A stretch of DNA of 53,037 nucleotides, taken from the UHGV virus genome UHGV-0150124. One strand, given 5' to 3'. The notes beneath the pieces are model-generated. The model made no database searches, had not been told where the DNA came from, and saw only the letters and a program-made list of their open reading frames with translations. A program made the position numbers and the translations under genes. This document shows, one piece after another, positions 12,206 to 44,989 of this stretch; position 1 is the first letter of the stretch, and the number at the start of each line of letters is the position of its first letter. Origin of the DNA: a virus.

Positions 12206-14545
12206 GCGGCGAGGTTGCAACATTCCGCCTGGTCTTTGAGATTCCCTTGTTATCATTTTCATGGCTACACGTTCCATTGTTAATTCAAGTCTGCGGCTGT
12301 CTTCGTCGCTGAATCCGTTCGTGGTCTGAATGCTGATACTGACAGGCATACTAATACCGCCACCGCCGCCAATATCACGGCCCGGAATAACTCTGCCGTT
12401 CTCGCCAGGGATCATATATTGATTGCCGTTAGATGTCTGGAATAGCTCCGGCCTGTTGTGTTCCCCTACGCGGTACATATTACCACCAATGACGCTACCA
12501 CCATTAAAGCGACCGCCGCCGAAAATTGACGTAGCCAGCGACATGATCGCAGTGAGCGCCGCCGAACCAGCCGCCGCCCAGCTACCGCCAGTTGACGCCG
12601 CAGTTGCCGCCGCTGCTGGGGCCGCCGCCGCAGCAATGCTTCCCTGAGCTGCTACCGCGCTTGCTGTTGTACTTGTTTGCGTGGCCTTGCTTTGTGTCTC
12701 CATCATGATCTGATCTGCTATCCAGTTTGCAGCTATGTCTGAGAGTCTGTTACCGATATTGCCGAGTATATTGCTTCCTAAGTTAGCAAAAACATCACTC
12801 AATGATTGAGTGCCGTTTAACAGGCCAACAAGCGCATTACTCATTCCGCCTTTAAGGCCATTAACACAATCACCGATAAGGCCGTTTGTGTCGCTTTGCG
12901 CCTGCCATTGTTCCCATTTCAGATCGCGGATCTGTTGCTCATAGGCTAACAATTCCTGTTTCTGTTGCGCTTCAGTAGCGCCCAGGTCTATAAGCATTTG
13001 CTTACGGATGGCCCATTCATTTTGCGCCTGCTGGATGGGGTCAACTTCGCCTTTTAGCTGATCCATCGGGCTTACTATTTGTGACCATTTATCACGCAAT
13101 TCATCTACCGGAATTTGTGCTAATTCTTCTTTCAGTTCCTTACCGATCCCTTTTTGCGCGGCGCGGTACTCAAGGAGTGTGATTTTACCCTGGGCGAATG
13201 CAGCATCAATGGCCTTTCCGTTCTCTAATGCTTTGCGCATAGCTGCGGCGTCTTTATTGTACTGGTCAGAAACGCTTATGCCCTTGTCACCAAGCGTATC
13301 CTCTTTGCTTTTCTTGCTGCCAGTTTTCTTACCCTTTTTAGGTTTATCAACTGGTTTATCGAATCCGGTAATGGCTCCGTCTTTTGGTGCTGTTAACGCC
13401 TCTTTCGCTTCTTCGCCTTTTTTCCTGACCGCATCAAGATCACTCTTAAGCGTCATAACCTGGCCTACGACCGGGCCGAACATTTTTGTCGGATTGCTGT
13501 TTAGTTCTTCCTTGCGCTCGTCTACAATTTCCTTCATCCACTTATATGCATCCATCAGCGCCTTGATTGGCGTCACCATTGCAATGATCTTCTCTGCTAC
13601 CTCGCCAGCCTTCACAGCCACATCATCAAACATGTCGATGAATTCGCCACCAGCCGTTTTGAGTGTATCGAAGCAGGTTTTAGCGAATTTAGCGCCCTCG
13701 CCAAGCCCTTTAACGCCCTTCGTGATTAAGTCGATAGCTGAAACAACGCCATCTGATACGCCGAAAAGATCATCAAGCTGCTCAACAAGGCCCATGATTT
13801 CGACTTTAAGCTCATTCAGGGCCGTGCCGGATGTGCGCGGCAACTGCGCAAACTTCTCGTTTGTTTCCTGCGTAGCCGCCTGGATTGCGTTAACCATCCT
13901 TTCTGCCGTGATCTTACCGTCCAGCATTTCGGCGCGGAACTGGCCCATTGATAATCCCATATGGCGGGCCATTGTTTGTACGATGGTCGGGGTGTTTTCA
14001 AGTAGGCTGTTAAATTCTTCAGCACGCAGCACGCCGCCGTCTATAGACTGGCGGAACTGGCGCATAGAGTTTGACATTTGCTCTGCTGACGCACCGCCTA
14101 ACGCCCCCATTTTCTGAATAGTGCCGACAAGGTTAAGTAATTGACCTTCGGTAGCTGACGTGTTCTTCAGTGAGATAGCCAGGCCTTGCCATAGTTCGCC
14201 AGTATCCTTCAGGCTCTGACCCGTCTCCCTGGATATTGCTTTCAGGCCGTCAAAAACCCGTCCGGCGGACTCTGCATCGCCCGTAAGCATTTTGATTTTT
14301 ACGCGAAGCATTTTTGCTTGCTCCGCCATATCCATAAATTGGCGCACAGCCTCGGCAGCAATTAGCAAATGGATAACCCTGGTCAGTGCCTTGATGGATG
14401 TTTTCAGGGTGTTTACCTGGCGGTCAGCCTGTTTTGCGCCGCGCTCTATACGATCAAAGGCCTGGTCTGCCTGTCGTTGTGCAACGAGAAGTTGACCAGT
14501 TTTCGCATCAACTTCGTAATAAATTGTACCTACACTGGTAGCCAT
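12200..14545 (-). CDS. Tail tape measure protein
   Basis: 781 aa, long helical/coiled-coil body, Gly/Ala-rich C-terminal region; sits between tail chaperone and tail tip genes. Confidence 0.85.
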   Translation of the reverse strand: MATSVGTIYYEVDAKTGQLLVAQRQADQAFDRIERGAKQADRQVNTLKTSIKALTRVIHLLIAAEAVRQFMDMAEQAKMLRVKIKMLTGDAESAGRVFDGLKAISRETGQSLKDTGELWQGLAISLKNTSATEGQLLNLVGTIQKMGALGGASAEQMSNSMRQFRQSIDGGVLRAEEFNSLLENTPTIVQTMARHMGLSMGQFRAEMLDGKITAERMVNAIQAATQETNEKFAQLPRTSGTALNELKVEIMGLVEQLDDLFGVSDGVVSAIDLITKGVKGLGEGAKFAKTCFDTLKTAGGEFIDMFDDVAVKAGEVAEKIIAMVTPIKALMDAYKWMKEIVDERKEELNSNPTKMFGPVVGQVMTLKSDLDAVRKKGEEAKEALTAPKDGAITGFDKPVDKPKKGKKTGSKKSKEDTLGDKGISVSDQYNKDAAAMRKALENGKAIDAAFAQGKITLLEYRAAQKGIGKELKEELAQIPVDELRDKWSQIVSPMDQLKGEVDPIQQAQNEWAIRKQMLIDLGATEAQQKQELLAYEQQIRDLKWEQWQAQSDTNGLIGDCVNGLKGGMSNALVGLLNGTQSLSDVFANLGSNILGNIGNRLSDIAANWIADQIMMETQSKATQTSTTASAVAAQGSIAAAAAPAAAATAASTGGSWAAAGSAALTAIMSLATSIFGGGRFNGGSVIGGNMYRVGEHNRPELFQTSNGNQYMIPGENGRVIPGRDIGGGGGISMPVSISIQTTNGFSDEDSRRLELTMERVAMKMITRESQRPGGMLQPRRK

Positions 14546-25757: not shown

Positions 25758-25826
25758 CTATTGAGTTAACGCGATCATGGTAAAAACAATCGCAACGATC
25801 AGGAAAAAGAAATCAAGCCATTTCAT
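25758..25826 (-). CDS. Tiny hydrophobic peptide 22 aa (MKWLDFFFLIVAIVFTMIALTQ)
   Basis: Hand-translated; GGGAG upstream. Confidence 0.3.
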   Translation of the reverse strand: MKWLDFFFLIVAIVFTMIALTQ

Positions 25827-25889
25827 TTTTTCATCTCCCGGTATACGTCCACAGCAATAACCACAACTACAGCCACCAGCAATAGCATC

Positions 25890-25997
25890 TCATATGCGTT
25901 CATTGACACTACCTATAACCAGACCAATGATGATAATTACGGCTACTACGCAAAACATCATCCCGCACATAATCGCCAGTAATTCGAATATATCCAT
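25890..25997 (-). CDS. Tiny hydrophobic peptide 35 aa (MDIFELLAIMCGMMFCVVAVIIIIGLVIGSVNERI)
   Basis: Hand-translated; AGGTGA upstream; C-terminal part of a track ORF. Confidence 0.3.
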   Translation of the reverse strand: MDIFELLAIMCGMMFCVVAVIIIIGLVIGSVNERI

Positions 25998-26171: not shown

Positions 26172-26276
26172 TCACCCCACCAAATACTTGATATATACGT
26201 TTATCAGCGCAACTATAATAGAACCCACAAGAAACACAGAAACGCCGATTAATCCGGCGATGATGTAAGCATCCAT
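26172..26276 (-). CDS. Tiny hydrophobic peptide 34 aa (MDAYIIAGLIGVSVFLVGSIIVALINVYIKYLVG)
   Basis: Hand-translated; weak RBS. Confidence 0.3.
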   Translation of the reverse strand: MDAYIIAGLIGVSVFLVGSIIVALINVYIKYLVG

Positions 26277-26351: not shown

Positions 26352-26924
26352 TTACCCTCTCTTAAAGCTCATAACGCGCGGTACAAGCGCCTCTTTTGCT
26401 TTCGGCTTACGTTTGCCTTTCTTAGCTGGTTTTTTCTCTTCTTTCGGCTCCTCTGCCTGTTCTGCTGCATCAGTCGCCTGCTCTGCCTTTTCTAACGCCT
26501 GCTCAACGACTTCAGCCGCCTGCATCGCTGTGATCTGTGCTTCGTTTGATTCTGCTAGGATAGGGAAAAACGCATCGAAGATACGGCCTACCATGTAAGC
26601 GTAAGTCTCATTCGCCGGATGGGTAGGATCCGTGGTAGCCACGACGCCTACATCACTTAAAACGTGGAATGTAGTGTGGGCGCATTCATGGACCAGCGTT
26701 CCCAACTCATTGTTGAATACTGCGATCACGTAGAAGTTACCACCATTCTCGCCAGTGCAAGTAAGCGTTAATCCTCCAGCCAACTCGAAATCAGGTTCAA
26801 TCGGAATTCCTGCCTTTTCGCAAAATTCATAGAACATCTCGCGGGTCGGGCAAAAGAAAACGGTTGTATGCTCAAAGAGTGGGATCTTAAATTGAGGCAA
26901 TTTAATGCCTTTAGCCTTAGCCAT
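26352..26924 (-). CDS. Hypothetical protein with HExxH motif and Lys-rich acidic/basic tail
   Basis: 190 aa; LVHECAHTTFH contains HExxH; C-terminal AEQAEEPKEEKKPAKKGKRKPKAKE tail. Confidence 0.4.
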   Translation of the reverse strand: MAKAKGIKLPQFKIPLFEHTTVFFCPTREMFYEFCEKAGIPIEPDFELAGGLTLTCTGENGGNFYVIAVFNNELGTLVHECAHTTFHVLSDVGVVATTDPTHPANETYAYMVGRIFDAFFPILAESNEAQITAMQAAEVVEQALEKAEQATDAAEQAEEPKEEKKPAKKGKRKPKAKEALVPRVMSFKRG

Positions 26925-27203
26925 CAGAATAATCTCCTATTCTGAAAAATATAACCCCCGCAAAACTCGACACCGCAGGGAGTGAAAACAGTTATAAAAC
27001 ACTGAAAACGGCGCTTCATCAGTACCGTTTCCAGAATTTTATAAAATTGGTGAATGGCGCTTTCTTCTACCCAGGTAGCGCCTGACCTGTTAATGGGACT
27101 GTTGATCCGGTATTACGTGTTTTTGACTATTCCGCCGTCGCTCGCGGGAAGGATTGGCCCGGTTATGGCTGGCTGACAGAAACGGCGACACGTCAACGCG
27201 CTG

Positions 27204-27692
27204 CTATTCTTTGCGTAAACACTGAGTTTTGATGTAGTCCTGTAGGCCAGTGATCTGTGCGTCTTTCTCTTTTAGTTGTTCTCTGAGGGATAGATAAGAT
27301 TGTCTAGCAGTGGCATCAAGCTCGCAGGTGGCTCCATCAATGCGGCTGGCGGTCGCGGCGGGGTCGGACACTCGCACGGGTATTGCGTTGACGCGCAACC
27401 GGATAGTACCGTTATCAATGCCAGTGCGCAGATCGGCAATGTCAGATCTGATAGCTTTAATCTCATCGTGATACCTCTTATCAAGTTTTGACAGTTCGGC
27501 GTTTCGCTCCTTCATCTGCTGAATAGTGTTACTTGCCGTTTTCAGTGCGCCTTTCGTTACCGTGACTTCTTCCTGTAACCTTGCCGCCTCACCCTGGTAA
27601 TAACATGTTACGGCGGTCAGTCCGGCAATAATGCAAACAACAGCGGCGATAATTAACGCCTTCACCTTGTCCACGTTTCCCCCCATTCGCAA
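27204..27692 (-). CDS. Rz: Rz-like i-spanin
   Basis: N-terminal TM helix, coiled-coil body, C-terminus resembles lambda Rz ([22 protein letters not shown]...CL). Confidence 0.8.
27272..27466 (-). CDS. Rz1: Rz1-like o-spanin embedded in Rz in another frame
   Basis: Lipobox LSGC after a signal sequence, then Pro-rich [14 protein letters not shown]; fully nested within Rz. Confidence 0.75.
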   Translation of the reverse strand: MRLKLSDLTLPICALALITVLSGCASTQYPCECPTPPRPPAALMEPPASLMPLLDNLIYPSENN

Positions 27693-28646: not shown

Positions 28647-28823
28647 TTGCGCTCCTTAATAACCCTTTTGATCTGCGCGCGCGGCATCTACGAGAGCAAT
28701 AAACACCGCTACAGGCCAGAAAGGAATCTCAAGACCACCACGATCGAGATCATTAGATTTGATAAAACAAGACATCAGGATAGCGCCAGCAATATAAAGG
28801 AGAAACACAGCAATGATAAGACA
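28647..28823 (-). CDS. Small membrane protein (~58 aa)
   Basis: Hand-translated MIECLIIAVFLLYIAGAILMSCFIK...; below the track length cut-off. Confidence 0.3.
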
Positions 28824-28956
28824 TTCAATCATCCTCTTTCTCCCCGCCTAAATATTGATATATTTCTTCAGCATTTTCCCCGCGCTCAAAACAATAATGT
28901 TCAAACATGCGCCAATTTTCACTAAGAAACATAACAATAAAATTGTTAACGTATTC
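28816..28956 (-). CDS. Small ORF (~46 aa)
   Basis: Hand-translated MDDEYVNNFIVMFLSENWRMFEHY...; start follows stop of upstream gene. Confidence 0.25.
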
Positions 28957-28967
28957 GTCATCCATAG

Positions 28968-39112: not shown

Positions 39113-39293
39113 TTAACACCTCAACATATTGTTCAAGATGCCATTGACCCACCTCATCATCTTCCTCGTCAAATAATGTTACCTGACCACCAGGCCCAAA
39201 AGAAAAGGCAGCTATGATAAATTTATACCCATACCACGTACGGATCTTTTCGCCGCCTTTTAAATCTTTAACTTTTACCAATTTTATAGCCAT
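39102..39293 (-). CDS. Hypothetical protein
   Basis: 63-aa ORF. Confidence 0.35.
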   Translation of the reverse strand: MAIKLVKVKDLKGGEKIRTWYGYKFIIAAFSFGPGGQVTLFDEEDDEVGQWHLEQYVEVLNEN

Positions 39294-39559
39294 ACGCCGA
39301 ACATCCCATTCAGTCCGGCGAACAATTTCCGCCAGTGGTCTTCAACATAAGCCCGGAACGGCTTAACGCGAACATTACGGGCCTTCAGTTCGATCTTGTC
39401 AAAGAAGCGCGGCTCTATAATTGTTCCGTCCAGATATTTAACCAGGATCGGACGCTCAAGATCGTTATATGTCTTATTCAGCACAACCAGACCAGGGTCT
39501 TTACGGTATTCCGGGAGCACGACCAGATCACCCGTTTTGATATTCATGAATGGCATCAC
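39284..39559 (-). CDS. Hypothetical protein
   Basis: 91-aa ORF. Confidence 0.4.
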   Translation of the reverse strand: MMPFMNIKTGDLVVLPEYRKDPGLVVLNKTYNDLERPILVKYLDGTIIEPRFFDKIELKARNVRVKPFRAYVEDHWRKLFAGLNGMFGVWL

Positions 39560-39672
39560 ATCACCCCGCCGATATAGCTAATAATTGCCGCAGTCGCGCC
39601 AGCTATTACCACCATGAAGACGAAAGCGACCACACAGAAAACAGCCTTGACAGTATTTTTGTCGACTCGCAT
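39556..39672 (-). CDS. Small hydrophobic peptide (~38 aa)
   Basis: Hand-translated MRVDKNTVKAVFCVVAFVFMVVIAGATAAIISYIGGVM. Confidence 0.3.
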   Translation of the reverse strand: MRVDKNTVKAVFCVVAFVFMVVIAGATAAIISYIGGVM

Positions 39673-39679
39673 ATAAACC

Positions 39680-39787
39680 TCACATGTCAGTAATCAGCTT
39701 AACAATCGCCACAGTGATATAGAGTGACGCACTAAGGTAAACAGCCGCCACAGCAACGGCGGCGGATAACATTGCAATCTTTTTCAT
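39680..39787 (-). CDS. Small hydrophobic peptide (~35 aa)
   Basis: Hand-translated MKKIAMLSAAVAVAAVYLSASLYITVAIVKLITDM; start overlaps stop of upstream gene. Confidence 0.3.
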   Translation of the reverse strand: MKKIAMLSAAVAVAAVYLSASLYITVAIVKLITDM

Positions 39788-40035
39788 TTGCCACCCTCCG
39801 CAATGAACTTATCAAGCCATTTGTTATTAGCCAGCCGTTCGGCATCTTCGCCAAATGATTTACGTTCGCTTAATTCCTTGCGCGTCGGGAAAGGCCATTT
39901 ATCGTGCCAGCCCGCCGACGTTTCGAATTCATAGTTACCGCCACCGAATTCGACAAATACATCACCATCGTCTGAGGTTTCCGCAGTCCCCTGAAAACCG
40001 CGCCCGTTATTTTCGCTTAATGTTGTAGCTGTCAT
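39784..40035 (-). CDS. Hypothetical protein
   Basis: 83-aa ORF. Confidence 0.4.
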   Translation of the reverse strand: MTATTLSENNGRGFQGTAETSDDGDVFVEFGGGNYEFETSAGWHDKWPFPTRKELSERKSFGEDAERLANNKWLDKFIAEGGK

Positions 40036-40047
40036 GGTAATACCTCA

Positions 40048-40326
40048 TTAATCGTTAATAACCTTGCCCATACGCCCGCGATATTTGCGCATTCGTGGAT
40101 CAACATATTCAGGCCACTGCATATCATCAGTTTTCTGTAGCGGGTAAGAACTCGCTCGCCAGTTGTCAAACCAGATTTGCTTCGCGTACAGGTCACTAAA
40201 TCTTTTCGCCATTCGATCCGCTGCCGTGCCGCATAAAAAAAGCCCGCGATCGATTTGATCGCGGGCTTCTTTTAATACTTGCTCTTTTGTTCGTGGTTGC
40301 GGTGGCGGTTTTAGATAATCACTCAT
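40048..40326 (-). CDS. Hypothetical protein
   Basis: Start taken at MSDYLK (track ORF extends into ssb). Confidence 0.4.
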   Translation of the reverse strand: MSDYLKPPPQPRTKEQVLKEARDQIDRGLFLCGTAADRMAKRFSDLYAKQIWFDNWRASSYPLQKTDDMQWPEYVDPRMRKYRGRMGKVIND

Positions 40327-40342
40327 CGCTAACACATTGATT

Positions 40343-40762
40343 CTAAAAAGGAATATCGTCGTCGAAGTCCATCGGAGGCGGATTATTCCCGTTATTATTC
40401 TGCTGCTGCGGCGGCGCTTTCTGCTGCTGTCCTTGCTGCTGGCCTTGTTGGTTAACATTCATGAATTCAAATTCATTAACCGCCACTTCTACCGCAGTCC
40501 CCTTCGTGCCGTCGTTCCGGTCATATTGCCGAACATCCAGGCGACCGCTTACCACTATTTTTCCACCCTTGCGGATATGTGGCGCTAATTTTTCCGCACG
40601 CTCACCAAATACCAGGCAAGTGATCCACATTGTCCGCTTGTTATCACCGTAGCCATTCGTTACAGCTAACGGAAAACTACCAATCGCTTTACCGTTTTGC
40701 GTGTAGCGAACTTCCATGTCGTTTCCGATATTCCCGCCCAGCGTAATTGAATTCAAACTCAT
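40343..40762 (-). CDS. ssb: Single-stranded DNA-binding protein
   Basis: 139 aa, OB-fold-like N-terminal region, Gln/Pro-rich linker, C-terminal acidic tip DFDDDIPF. Confidence 0.9.
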   Translation of the reverse strand: MSLNSITLGGNIGNDMEVRYTQNGKAIGSFPLAVTNGYGDNKRTMWITCLVFGERAEKLAPHIRKGGKIVVSGRLDVRQYDRNDGTKGTAVEVAVNEFEFMNVNQQGQQQGQQQKAPPQQQNNNGNNPPPMDFDDDIPF

Positions 40763-41406
40763 TAACCCATCTCCCCGTTAAGCTCTGCGACCCGGATGTC
40801 ATAAACATCTTTTGCCTTGATTCGATGTTCCGATCCTTCCGGTAGTAATTTCCAGCATTTGCCAAATATTTCACGCAGCTTGTTAGCGTCCTGCGCTTTC
40901 GCTGCTGCATCACAGAAACGTGCTAATACTTCATCAGGATTTGGCGGCGCTTTCTTCTGCTGCGGTTGTTGTTTTGGTGGGTTTTTCTGTTGTCGCGGCT
41001 GCTGGCCTGTCTGCTTCGCGTAAGCATCAGTATCAGGATCGCGAGCATCATCTATACAGAATAAACCGTTCAAAGCATATTTACGCGCGTAACTTGATGT
41101 TGCTCCTGTTAGCTGGCTGGCGTCCATACCCTTCTTGTTTTCTTCCTCCCTGGCATAAGCAGTTACCGCTATTACGTCTTCACCGTCGCTTAGCGTCGCC
41201 GTTGCTTTCACATAATAGCGATTGCCGATCAGGACAATTTCATCACTAACAGTCAGCGTGATATTTTGAAGCAGTGGTTTAACCGCCTCTAAAATATCCT
41301 CCGCCGACCTGTAATTATATCCACCAAAATTATTACGCTGATTTTTCGGCGCGTTCAGCGTTTGCTGAATCGTCCATAGCTTTTTATGTAACTCTGTTTT
41401 CACCAT
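40762..41406 (-). CDS. erf: Erf-family single-strand annealing protein
   Basis: LNAPKNQRNNFGGYNYRSAEDILEAVKPLL...DEIVLIGNRYYVKATATLSDGE...AREEENKKGMDASQLTGATSSYARKYALNGLF matches P22 Erf by eye. Confidence 0.85.
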   Translation of the reverse strand: MVKTELHKKLWTIQQTLNAPKNQRNNFGGYNYRSAEDILEAVKPLLQNITLTVSDEIVLIGNRYYVKATATLSDGEDVIAVTAYAREEENKKGMDASQLTGATSSYARKYALNGLFCIDDARDPDTDAYAKQTGQQPRQQKNPPKQQPQQKKAPPNPDEVLARFCDAAAKAQDANKLREIFGKCWKLLPEGSEHRIKAKDVYDIRVAELNGEMG

Positions 41407-44604: not shown

Positions 44605-44989
44605 CCAATCACGATCCGCAAAAATCCAAAATTACCCACAAAACAACCTCACCAGCGAGCTAAATAGCATGTGGTGCTAACTTGCTTGCCTTTTTGCGAT
44701 TAGCTCGTTAGAGAGCGTTACAGAGAGGATTTTAAAATGGACGGTAAACGCATGTTCGCCCTGGCTTTCGCGATCGCGATGGCTATCGCTGTTAACGTCG
44801 CCTTGTTCGGCGGTTTGTATCTGCTAGTTAATCCATAACCTACCTACCAGTCTGTAAATCGAAAATTAGCCACCTGATAGCGCCTCTAGCGCAATAAGAC
44901 ACTGCAACCTGTAAACGGGTTACGCGGTGGGATTTTTGCGTTGTAGCTCGTCTGAGGCGTTATATAGAAAATTAATAAAGGAGGTATAT

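Follow-up and report, generated by a model that had tools for sequence, protein, structure and literature searches.

A co-inherited pair of putative membrane microprotein genes in an annotation gap of the mEp021-like coliphage early operon

Does a short gap between two early genes of an mEp021-like coliphage encode protein and, if so, what might the products do? The question arises in the window, by which we mean the whole 53,037-nucleotide stretch of virus genome UHGV-0150124 that was analysed, where 236 nt without RefSeq annotation are filled by two small ORFs, here termed A and B. The region shares 99.9% identity with a prophage of E. coli M15 and 76–96% with seven GenBank phages, mEp021, mEp010, mEp013, mEp044, mEp515, mEp554 and MagusPhagus, and the mEp021 group has been described as Nus-dependent, non-lambdoid 'mEpimmI' coliphages (PMC11893012). 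A sequence-only reading of the window had noted an apparent annotation gap between two early genes at this point, and the gap is real: the PGAP annotation of the M15 prophage contains no feature between the 87-aa and 83-aa genes, and the mEp021 GenBank record shows only a predicted terminator ('TERM_2; score=85') and an RBS in the gap, with no ORFs. Among the RefSeq prophages, in each of the 20 rows listed the features under the match are too few for both ORFs to be among them. Both A and B are called as 'hypothetical protein' in the MagusPhagus and PP18000x records, and the PHANOTATE-type annotations of mEp044, mEp013, mEp010, mEp515, mEp554 and MagusPhagus contain the same two genes as 'hypothetical protein' entries, which in these mEp-group records carry no function, membrane nature or conservation analysis.

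Coding evidence for ORFs A and B

Two adjacent minus-strand ORFs are present where the sequence-only reading had placed them, each with one hydrophobic stretch as judged by Kyte-Doolittle and GRAVY values. ORF A (39680–39787) comprises 35 codons and a stop and would specify a 35-aa single-pass membrane microprotein, MKKIAMLSAAVAVAAVYLSASLYITVAIVKLITDM, which is 35–39 aa long in relatives; ORF B (39556–39672) comprises 38 codons and a stop and would specify a 38-aa single-pass membrane microprotein, MRVDKNTVKAVFCVVAFVFMVVIAGATAAIISYIGGVM, which is 38–40 aa long in relatives. In the window, A has a best 19-residue Kyte-Doolittle mean of 2.19 and a GRAVY of 1.51, and B has values of 2.76 and 1.56, respectively; across variants the best 19-residue mean ranges from 2.19 to 2.56 in A and from 2.58 to 3.08 in B. 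A hydrophobic stretch (at least 2.19 over 19 residues) and a net positive N-terminus are found in all 20 A and all 27 B variants examined. The N-termini are short and basic, MKK.. in A and MRVDK.. or MKVGKD.. in B, and approximately 26–28 of the 35–40 residues form a single hydrophobic stretch. With fewer than 50 aa and one hydrophobic segment of sufficient length to span the membrane, both would fall into the generic class of small single-pass membrane proteins. As a control for chance, the same hydrophobicity cut-offs were applied to all ATG-initiated ORFs of 25–60 aa in the six frames of the window, of which 9 of 234 (∼4%) pass. Thus, the occurrence of the ORFs by themselves in one genome is not beyond chance; what is beyond chance is the conservation, purifying selection and translation signals of A and B.

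Conservation was followed in loci fetched through the downstream neighbour (46 viral), through A itself (39) or from metagenomes (27). The frames are intact in 114 of 115 locus entries for A and in 116 of 116 for B, drawn from 116 fetched loci and the window, and these entries contain 24 distinct A and 34 distinct B peptides. Of the 37 distinct upstream sequences, all but one have both frames open, the exception being a metagenomic locus (L010; IMGVR_UViG_3300045988_060283, ∼2760–2790) in which A is disrupted by a 1-base deletion in an A5 run just past its start; this frameshift may reflect either a sequencing error in the homopolymer or a true pseudogene. Pairwise Nei-Gojobori dN/dS in frame is 0.19 for A and 0.32 for B, with 0 in-frame stops in 36–37 distinct sequences, B thus being less constrained than A, and the flanking genes yield 0.17 and 0.19. 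In the four unrelated frames dN/dS is 0.81–1.86 with many stops, the range for A being 0.9–1.9, and in the antisense frame sharing third codon positions it is 0.29 (A) and 0.42 (B), as expected. Diversity is greatest at the third codon position in both alignments, and purifying selection on the amino acids spans the full length of both ORFs. The reading frames, on whose conservation the sequence-only reading had staked its proposal, are therefore conserved and under purifying selection.

Translation signals are conserved as well. A Shine-Dalgarno sequence, GGAGG (39795–39799, minus strand), lies 7 nt upstream of the A start in every distinct upstream junction, and a second, GAGG (39678–39681, minus strand), overlaps the A stop and ends 5 nt before the B start. 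The spacing between A and B is 7 nt in the window and 2–9 nt in relatives. At its start A is joined to the upstream 83-aa gene by an ATGA overlap, and at its stop B is joined to the next ATG by TGATG; both overlaps are conserved across alleles. Combined, the intact frames, the low in-frame dN/dS and the conserved Shine-Dalgarno sites and start/stop overlaps argue strongly that A and B are real, translationally coupled protein-coding genes.

Operon position and an upstream hairpin

A and B lie inside an early operon under an N-like antiterminator, downstream of erf, ssb and abc2. The order on the minus strand is the N-like gp17, erf (Erf recombinase, 40762–41406), ssb (SSB, 40343–40762), an abc2-like ORF (anti-RecBCD Abc2, 40048–40326), the gene for an 83-aa protein (phrog_28542, 39784–40035) to which A appears to be translationally coupled, A, B, the gene for a ∼90-aa protein (phrog_28396, 39284–39559) whose conserved ATG start at 39556 overlaps the B stop, and then small genes of unknown function. 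In mEp021, according to the published account, the operon runs on through ipe, methylases, ninG, rusA and Q to lysis and structural genes, is served by nutR1 and nutR2 and is referred to as the nutR1/gp17 operon (PMC11893012). In the window, holin, lysozyme and Rz are located ∼12 kb further along the operon (597001–598152 of the record, ∼26420–27571 of the window). The earlier designation of the region as 'early-left' is thus apt by analogy with the lambda pL operon only, as the nutR1/gp17 operon of mEp021 reaches Q and the late genes.

The stretch between ssb and abc2 differs between the window and the archetype. In the mEp021 record (MH706966.1) ∼540 nt at 13809–14347 are without annotation between these two genes, while the window has no such gap, ssb ending at 40343 and abc2 starting at 40326. 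The difference points to an insertion in the archetype or to additional ORFs there that lack annotation.

A strong hairpin is found inside the abc2-like ORF (40233–40275, minus strand), ∼450 nt upstream of A along the direction of transcription. The stem is 17–18 bp (−27 to −33 kcal/mol) and is followed by a T run, which is T7 in most alleles. The hairpin is kept in 14 of 14 distinct sequences, and one paired change, CGC..GCG to CGT..CAT, keeps the pairing at the cost of an Arg-to-His substitution. It falls at Abc2 residues ..KEARDQIDRGLF.. and has no annotation in mEp021. These features suggest that the abc2 hairpin is a probable intrinsic terminator embedded in the gene, one which is a much better candidate for a gate than the hairpin within ORF A (see below) and may be the real gate for the downstream early genes. 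With this hairpin as an upstream terminator, A and B would probably be antitermination-dependent, delayed-early genes.

Distribution and possible function of the pair

Searches for families returned no relatives of A or B outside this phage group. Neither protein matched Pfam (E ≤ 1), PHROGs, NCBIfam (E ≤ 10) or PADLOC (E ≤ 1), the PADLOC search being equally negative at this threshold for five neighbouring proteins, and no Rfam family was detected at E ≤ 1 in 39200–40200. An exhaustive HMMER search of 1.84 billion representative proteins with a profile of 24 B sequences yielded 3 matches, all of them family members, and tblastn with B identified only the seven mEp-group phages. tblastn with A against phages gave no match, the query probably being masked by the BLAST low-complexity filter, and relatives of A were sought by pattern-based locus searches. 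A profile of A and B concatenated detected only 40-aa B variants and frameshifted fusions in a database listing that apparently has no entries below 40 aa. A pattern scan of one genome per species across 185,579 species found no relative of A and B or of the ∼90-aa neighbour. The 83-aa and ∼90-aa neighbours, used as queries for analogous cassettes elsewhere, returned the same seven phages or none. Metagenome and IMG/VR matches that were long enough to judge had contig sizes typical of this phage or prophage, and gene order was unchanged in the loci inspected. A and B are thus orphan families private to the mEp021-like (mEpimmI) coliphages, in which they form a fixed, co-inherited cassette in every phage examined.

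The relationship between the two proteins was considered at several levels. Paralogy of A and B is unconvincing, the best blastp segment covering 20 residues at 35% identity with an E of 0.027 obtained without composition correction. Several allele types exist, and the major A and B types co-occur perfectly; finer (greedy) clustering reveals A–B recombinants, and the association is no stronger than that between B and the next gene. With a spacing of only 2–9 nt, linkage renders the co-occurrence uninformative on co-evolution, and the suggestion that A and B work as a pair is based on co-inheritance and coupling. Periodicity of conservation at 95–110 degrees was not significant in either protein (p = 0.25 for A and 0.56 for B), so neither A nor B can be credited with a conserved interaction face.

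On balance, we consider it likely that A and B are co-inherited inner-membrane microproteins with an accessory, host-directed role in lytic growth. Their synthesis would be restricted to lytic growth, in which antitermination by Gp17 allows RNA polymerase to read through the upstream terminators. Insertion is predicted to be N-in/C-out, the basic N-termini being cytoplasmic by the positive-inside rule and 3–6 residues reaching the periplasm. As each protein is little more than one transmembrane helix, action would have to take place within the inner membrane, either through helix-helix contact, of A with B and/or with a host inner-membrane protein, or through perturbation of the bilayer. The membrane target modulated in this way would most likely be a host one. 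If the pair does target a host membrane machine, it would be of use as a compact probe of that machine, or as a lead towards one. Within this role, a minor share of our expectation falls on growth arrest, killing or a division block, a slightly smaller share on blocking the entry of competitor DNA, and the rest on unknown membrane targets.

A more specific version of this host-directed role, which we put forward tentatively, is that A and B together form a membrane-embedded effector of two subunits, confined to the mEpimmI phages, which acts on one particular machine of the host inner membrane. The divisome, FtsH, a sugar permease exploited for DNA entry and a defence effector bound to the membrane would be examples of such a target. 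Lambda CIII, a 54-aa membrane-associated FtsH inhibitor with an amphipathic peripheral helix, offers a partial parallel to A and B, as it too is a small early-operon product at the inner membrane and binds a host membrane protein. Unlike CIII, A and B are uniformly hydrophobic (helical hydrophobic moment 0.05–0.44, GRAVY 1.5–2.2) and are unrelated to it in sequence. If correct, a two-subunit effector of this kind would represent a new family of phage microprotein inhibitors whose mechanism lies entirely inside the bilayer.

The function originally proposed from the sequence, that A and/or B are host-killing or division-inhibitor peptides, appears unlikely to us; expressed early, such peptides would arrest growth, depolarise the membrane or block septation. 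The proposal started from the premise that, in lambdoid phages, small membrane peptides encoded at such a site are frequently host killers or division inhibitors, a premise that does not hold for the characterised examples: Kil of lambda, KilR of Rac and DicB of Qin are soluble and act on FtsZ or MinC, whereas A and B are predicted to be transmembrane and share no Pfam or PHROG homology with them. The resemblance is one of setting. Lambda kil sits near recombination genes in an N-dependent early operon, and A and B, located beside the recombination and anti-RecBCD genes of such an operon, occupy the same neighbourhood; like Kil, KilR and DicB they are tiny ORFs and would be dispensable accessory genes. 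Killing would also be in keeping with the death of cells that overexpress ipe, a gene reported to belong to the same operon in mEp021 (PMC11893012), and with the high toxicity on overexpression of some small single-TM early proteins of mycobacteriophages, such as the 58-aa Amelie gp43, but other membrane proteins in those screens were non-toxic (PMC11797047). Moreover, neither A nor B has homology to killing or division-inhibitor families in Pfam, PHROGs, NCBIfam or PADLOC, and toxicity of an overexpressed hydrophobic peptide would in any case be a weak and non-specific test.

We regard as still less probable that the pair confers superinfection exclusion in lytic growth, with A and B in the inner membrane blocking entry of competitor DNA in the manner of T4 Imm and Sp or HK97 gp15. 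Those are likewise phage-encoded small inner-membrane proteins, and the T4 pair is also early, but they are approximately twice as long as A or B, possess extramembrane parts and have no detectable homology to either protein. Exclusion would suit small inner-membrane proteins with almost no extramembrane part in a temperate gut phage that meets many competitors, and a conserved cassette with several allele types could, by inference only, reflect an arms race. Against this, dN/dS is well below 1 and does not suggest diversifying selection, and no promoter-like site for expression from the prophage was found. In addition, the exclusion proteins that PMC11893012 describes as demonstrated in this group are lipoproteins encoded elsewhere. 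The lipobox given there for the exclusion lipoproteins Cor, Llp and mEpimmI Lpp is [LVI][ASTVI][GAS]C; A has no Cys and the residue before each Cys of B is F or I, so neither protein has a lipobox and assignment to this class was rejected.

A role directed at the phage itself, in the timing of lysis with the holin or in anchoring a phage complex to the membrane, possibly with the ∼90-aa protein, is in our estimation distinctly improbable. The genes for A, B and the ∼90-aa protein appear to be translationally coupled and are always syntenic, their candidate core-gene status is consistent with a part in the phage's own cycle, and the ∼90-aa protein has a hydrophobic C-terminus that ends in a predicted helix, ...WRKLFAGLNGMFGVWL, in a low-confidence model. 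The distance of the lysis cassette argues against such a role, as does recombination, which separates B alleles from alleles of the ∼90-aa gene, and structural or homology support is lacking. A and B were also rejected as holins or antiholins, since they lie outside the lysis cassette and match no PHROG or Pfam holin.

That the gap is non-coding, an intergenic terminator accompanied by chance ORFs, or in a variant that A is a leader ORF whose translation modulates a hairpin, carries very little probability. The proposal derives from TERM_2 of mEp021 and from a scan of the window, in which a terminator-like hairpin is present within ORF A (39744–39763, minus strand; arms GCCGCCG and TGGCGGC around TTGCTG, then TGTTTACC), and it gains some plausibility from the ∼4% rate at which hydrophobic small ORFs arise by chance in the window. 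The hairpin lies ∼25–45 nt into the ORF and has a 7–8 bp stem followed by a weak T-tail, TGTTTACC, a poor tract for a terminator. TERM_2 lies in the same region of ORF A, with the mEp021-type hairpin a few nt further upstream in the ORF, and both the position and the sequence of the hairpin shift between alleles. Its stability does not exceed that of synonymous-codon permutations in any of 26 distinct sequences (26/26), the fraction of permuted nulls at least as stable being 0.10–0.97, and we therefore reject it as a selected terminator. Ribosomes translating an ORF would normally cover a hairpin at that depth. The structure most likely results from the many Ala (GCN) codons of the coding sequence, and the TERM_2 call probably arose only since the ORF lacked annotation. 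A terminator 't2' is stated to have been shown experimentally in mEp021 (PMC11893012, Fig. 7 legend) and is possibly the hairpin in ORF A, which would favour the terminator reading. Given the full-length purifying selection on both ORFs and the absence of in-frame stops, the reading of the gap as non-coding is already refuted.

The label attached to the downstream neighbour bears on one further possibility. The ∼90-aa gene is named 'toxin-antitoxin system toxin subunit' by PGAP/RefSeq and 'putative toxin-antitoxin system subunit' in the mEp021 record, PGAP placing its start at the third Met (39547) as opposed to the conserved, coupled ATG at 39556. No Pfam, NCBIfam or PADLOC model matches the protein, its homologues are confined to the mEp021 group, an AF2 model built from 19 sequences has a pLDDT of 48 and is unusable for a fold search, and a PDB profile search gave chance matches only (E about 0.6). 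The label, being without family, confident structure or PDB relative, was rejected and is not to be used in interpreting A and B. A and B do resemble the type I toxins Hok, Ldr, TisB and DinQ, reviewed among bacterial small membrane proteins (PMC12648545, PMC8309996), in having fewer than 50 aa, approximately one transmembrane helix and few terminal charges and in being of a kind often missed by annotation. Even so, the least probable reading of all, that they are type I toxins or part of a toxin-antitoxin module with the neighbour, is already largely refuted, as, unlike those toxins, they lie within an early operon of the phage and are coupled to it, with no separate transcription unit, promoter or long 5′ leader of their own, no promoter-like site lies on the plus strand across 39400–39900, no Rfam antitoxin RNA was detected, and no Pfam or NCBIfam toxin family (Hok/Gef, Ldr, TisB, Ibs, ShoB and others) was matched.

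Consequences for the gene map and further small ORFs

Microproteins of fewer than 50 aa are routinely dropped by annotation pipelines, and here this has left a gap in RefSeq and a predicted terminator in the record of the archetype. Recognition of A and B amends the gene map of a coliphage family that was described recently and is prevalent in the gut, and adds two candidate core genes to the mEp021-like phages. It also serves as a warning, as the 'TERM_2' call is probably due to the missing ORF annotation. That the early operon of a phage should carry an orphan pair of membrane microproteins is in itself unsurprising, and the gain in annotation is ordinary but real.

The hydrophobicity screen of the window also detected other small ATG-initiated ORFs, at 28656–28832, 28848–28961, 25823–25903 and 25890–25997 on the minus strand and at 44737–44838 on the plus strand. 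At least two of these, 25890–25997 and 28656–28832, are probably spurious, as they overlap longer annotated CDSs that are read in a different frame. A more promising small hydrophobic ORF, the third after A and B, has 34 aa (MDAYIIAGLIGVSVFLVGSIIVALINVYIKYLVG) and lies at 26172–26276 on the minus strand, in a PGAP gap between the Rz spanin and the next gene, where the mEp021 record has only a predicted terminator, TERM_6. In tblastn searches this ORF is 59–65% identical to sequences in mEp044 and MagusPhagus that are called hypothetical, and it is probably another missed membrane microprotein.
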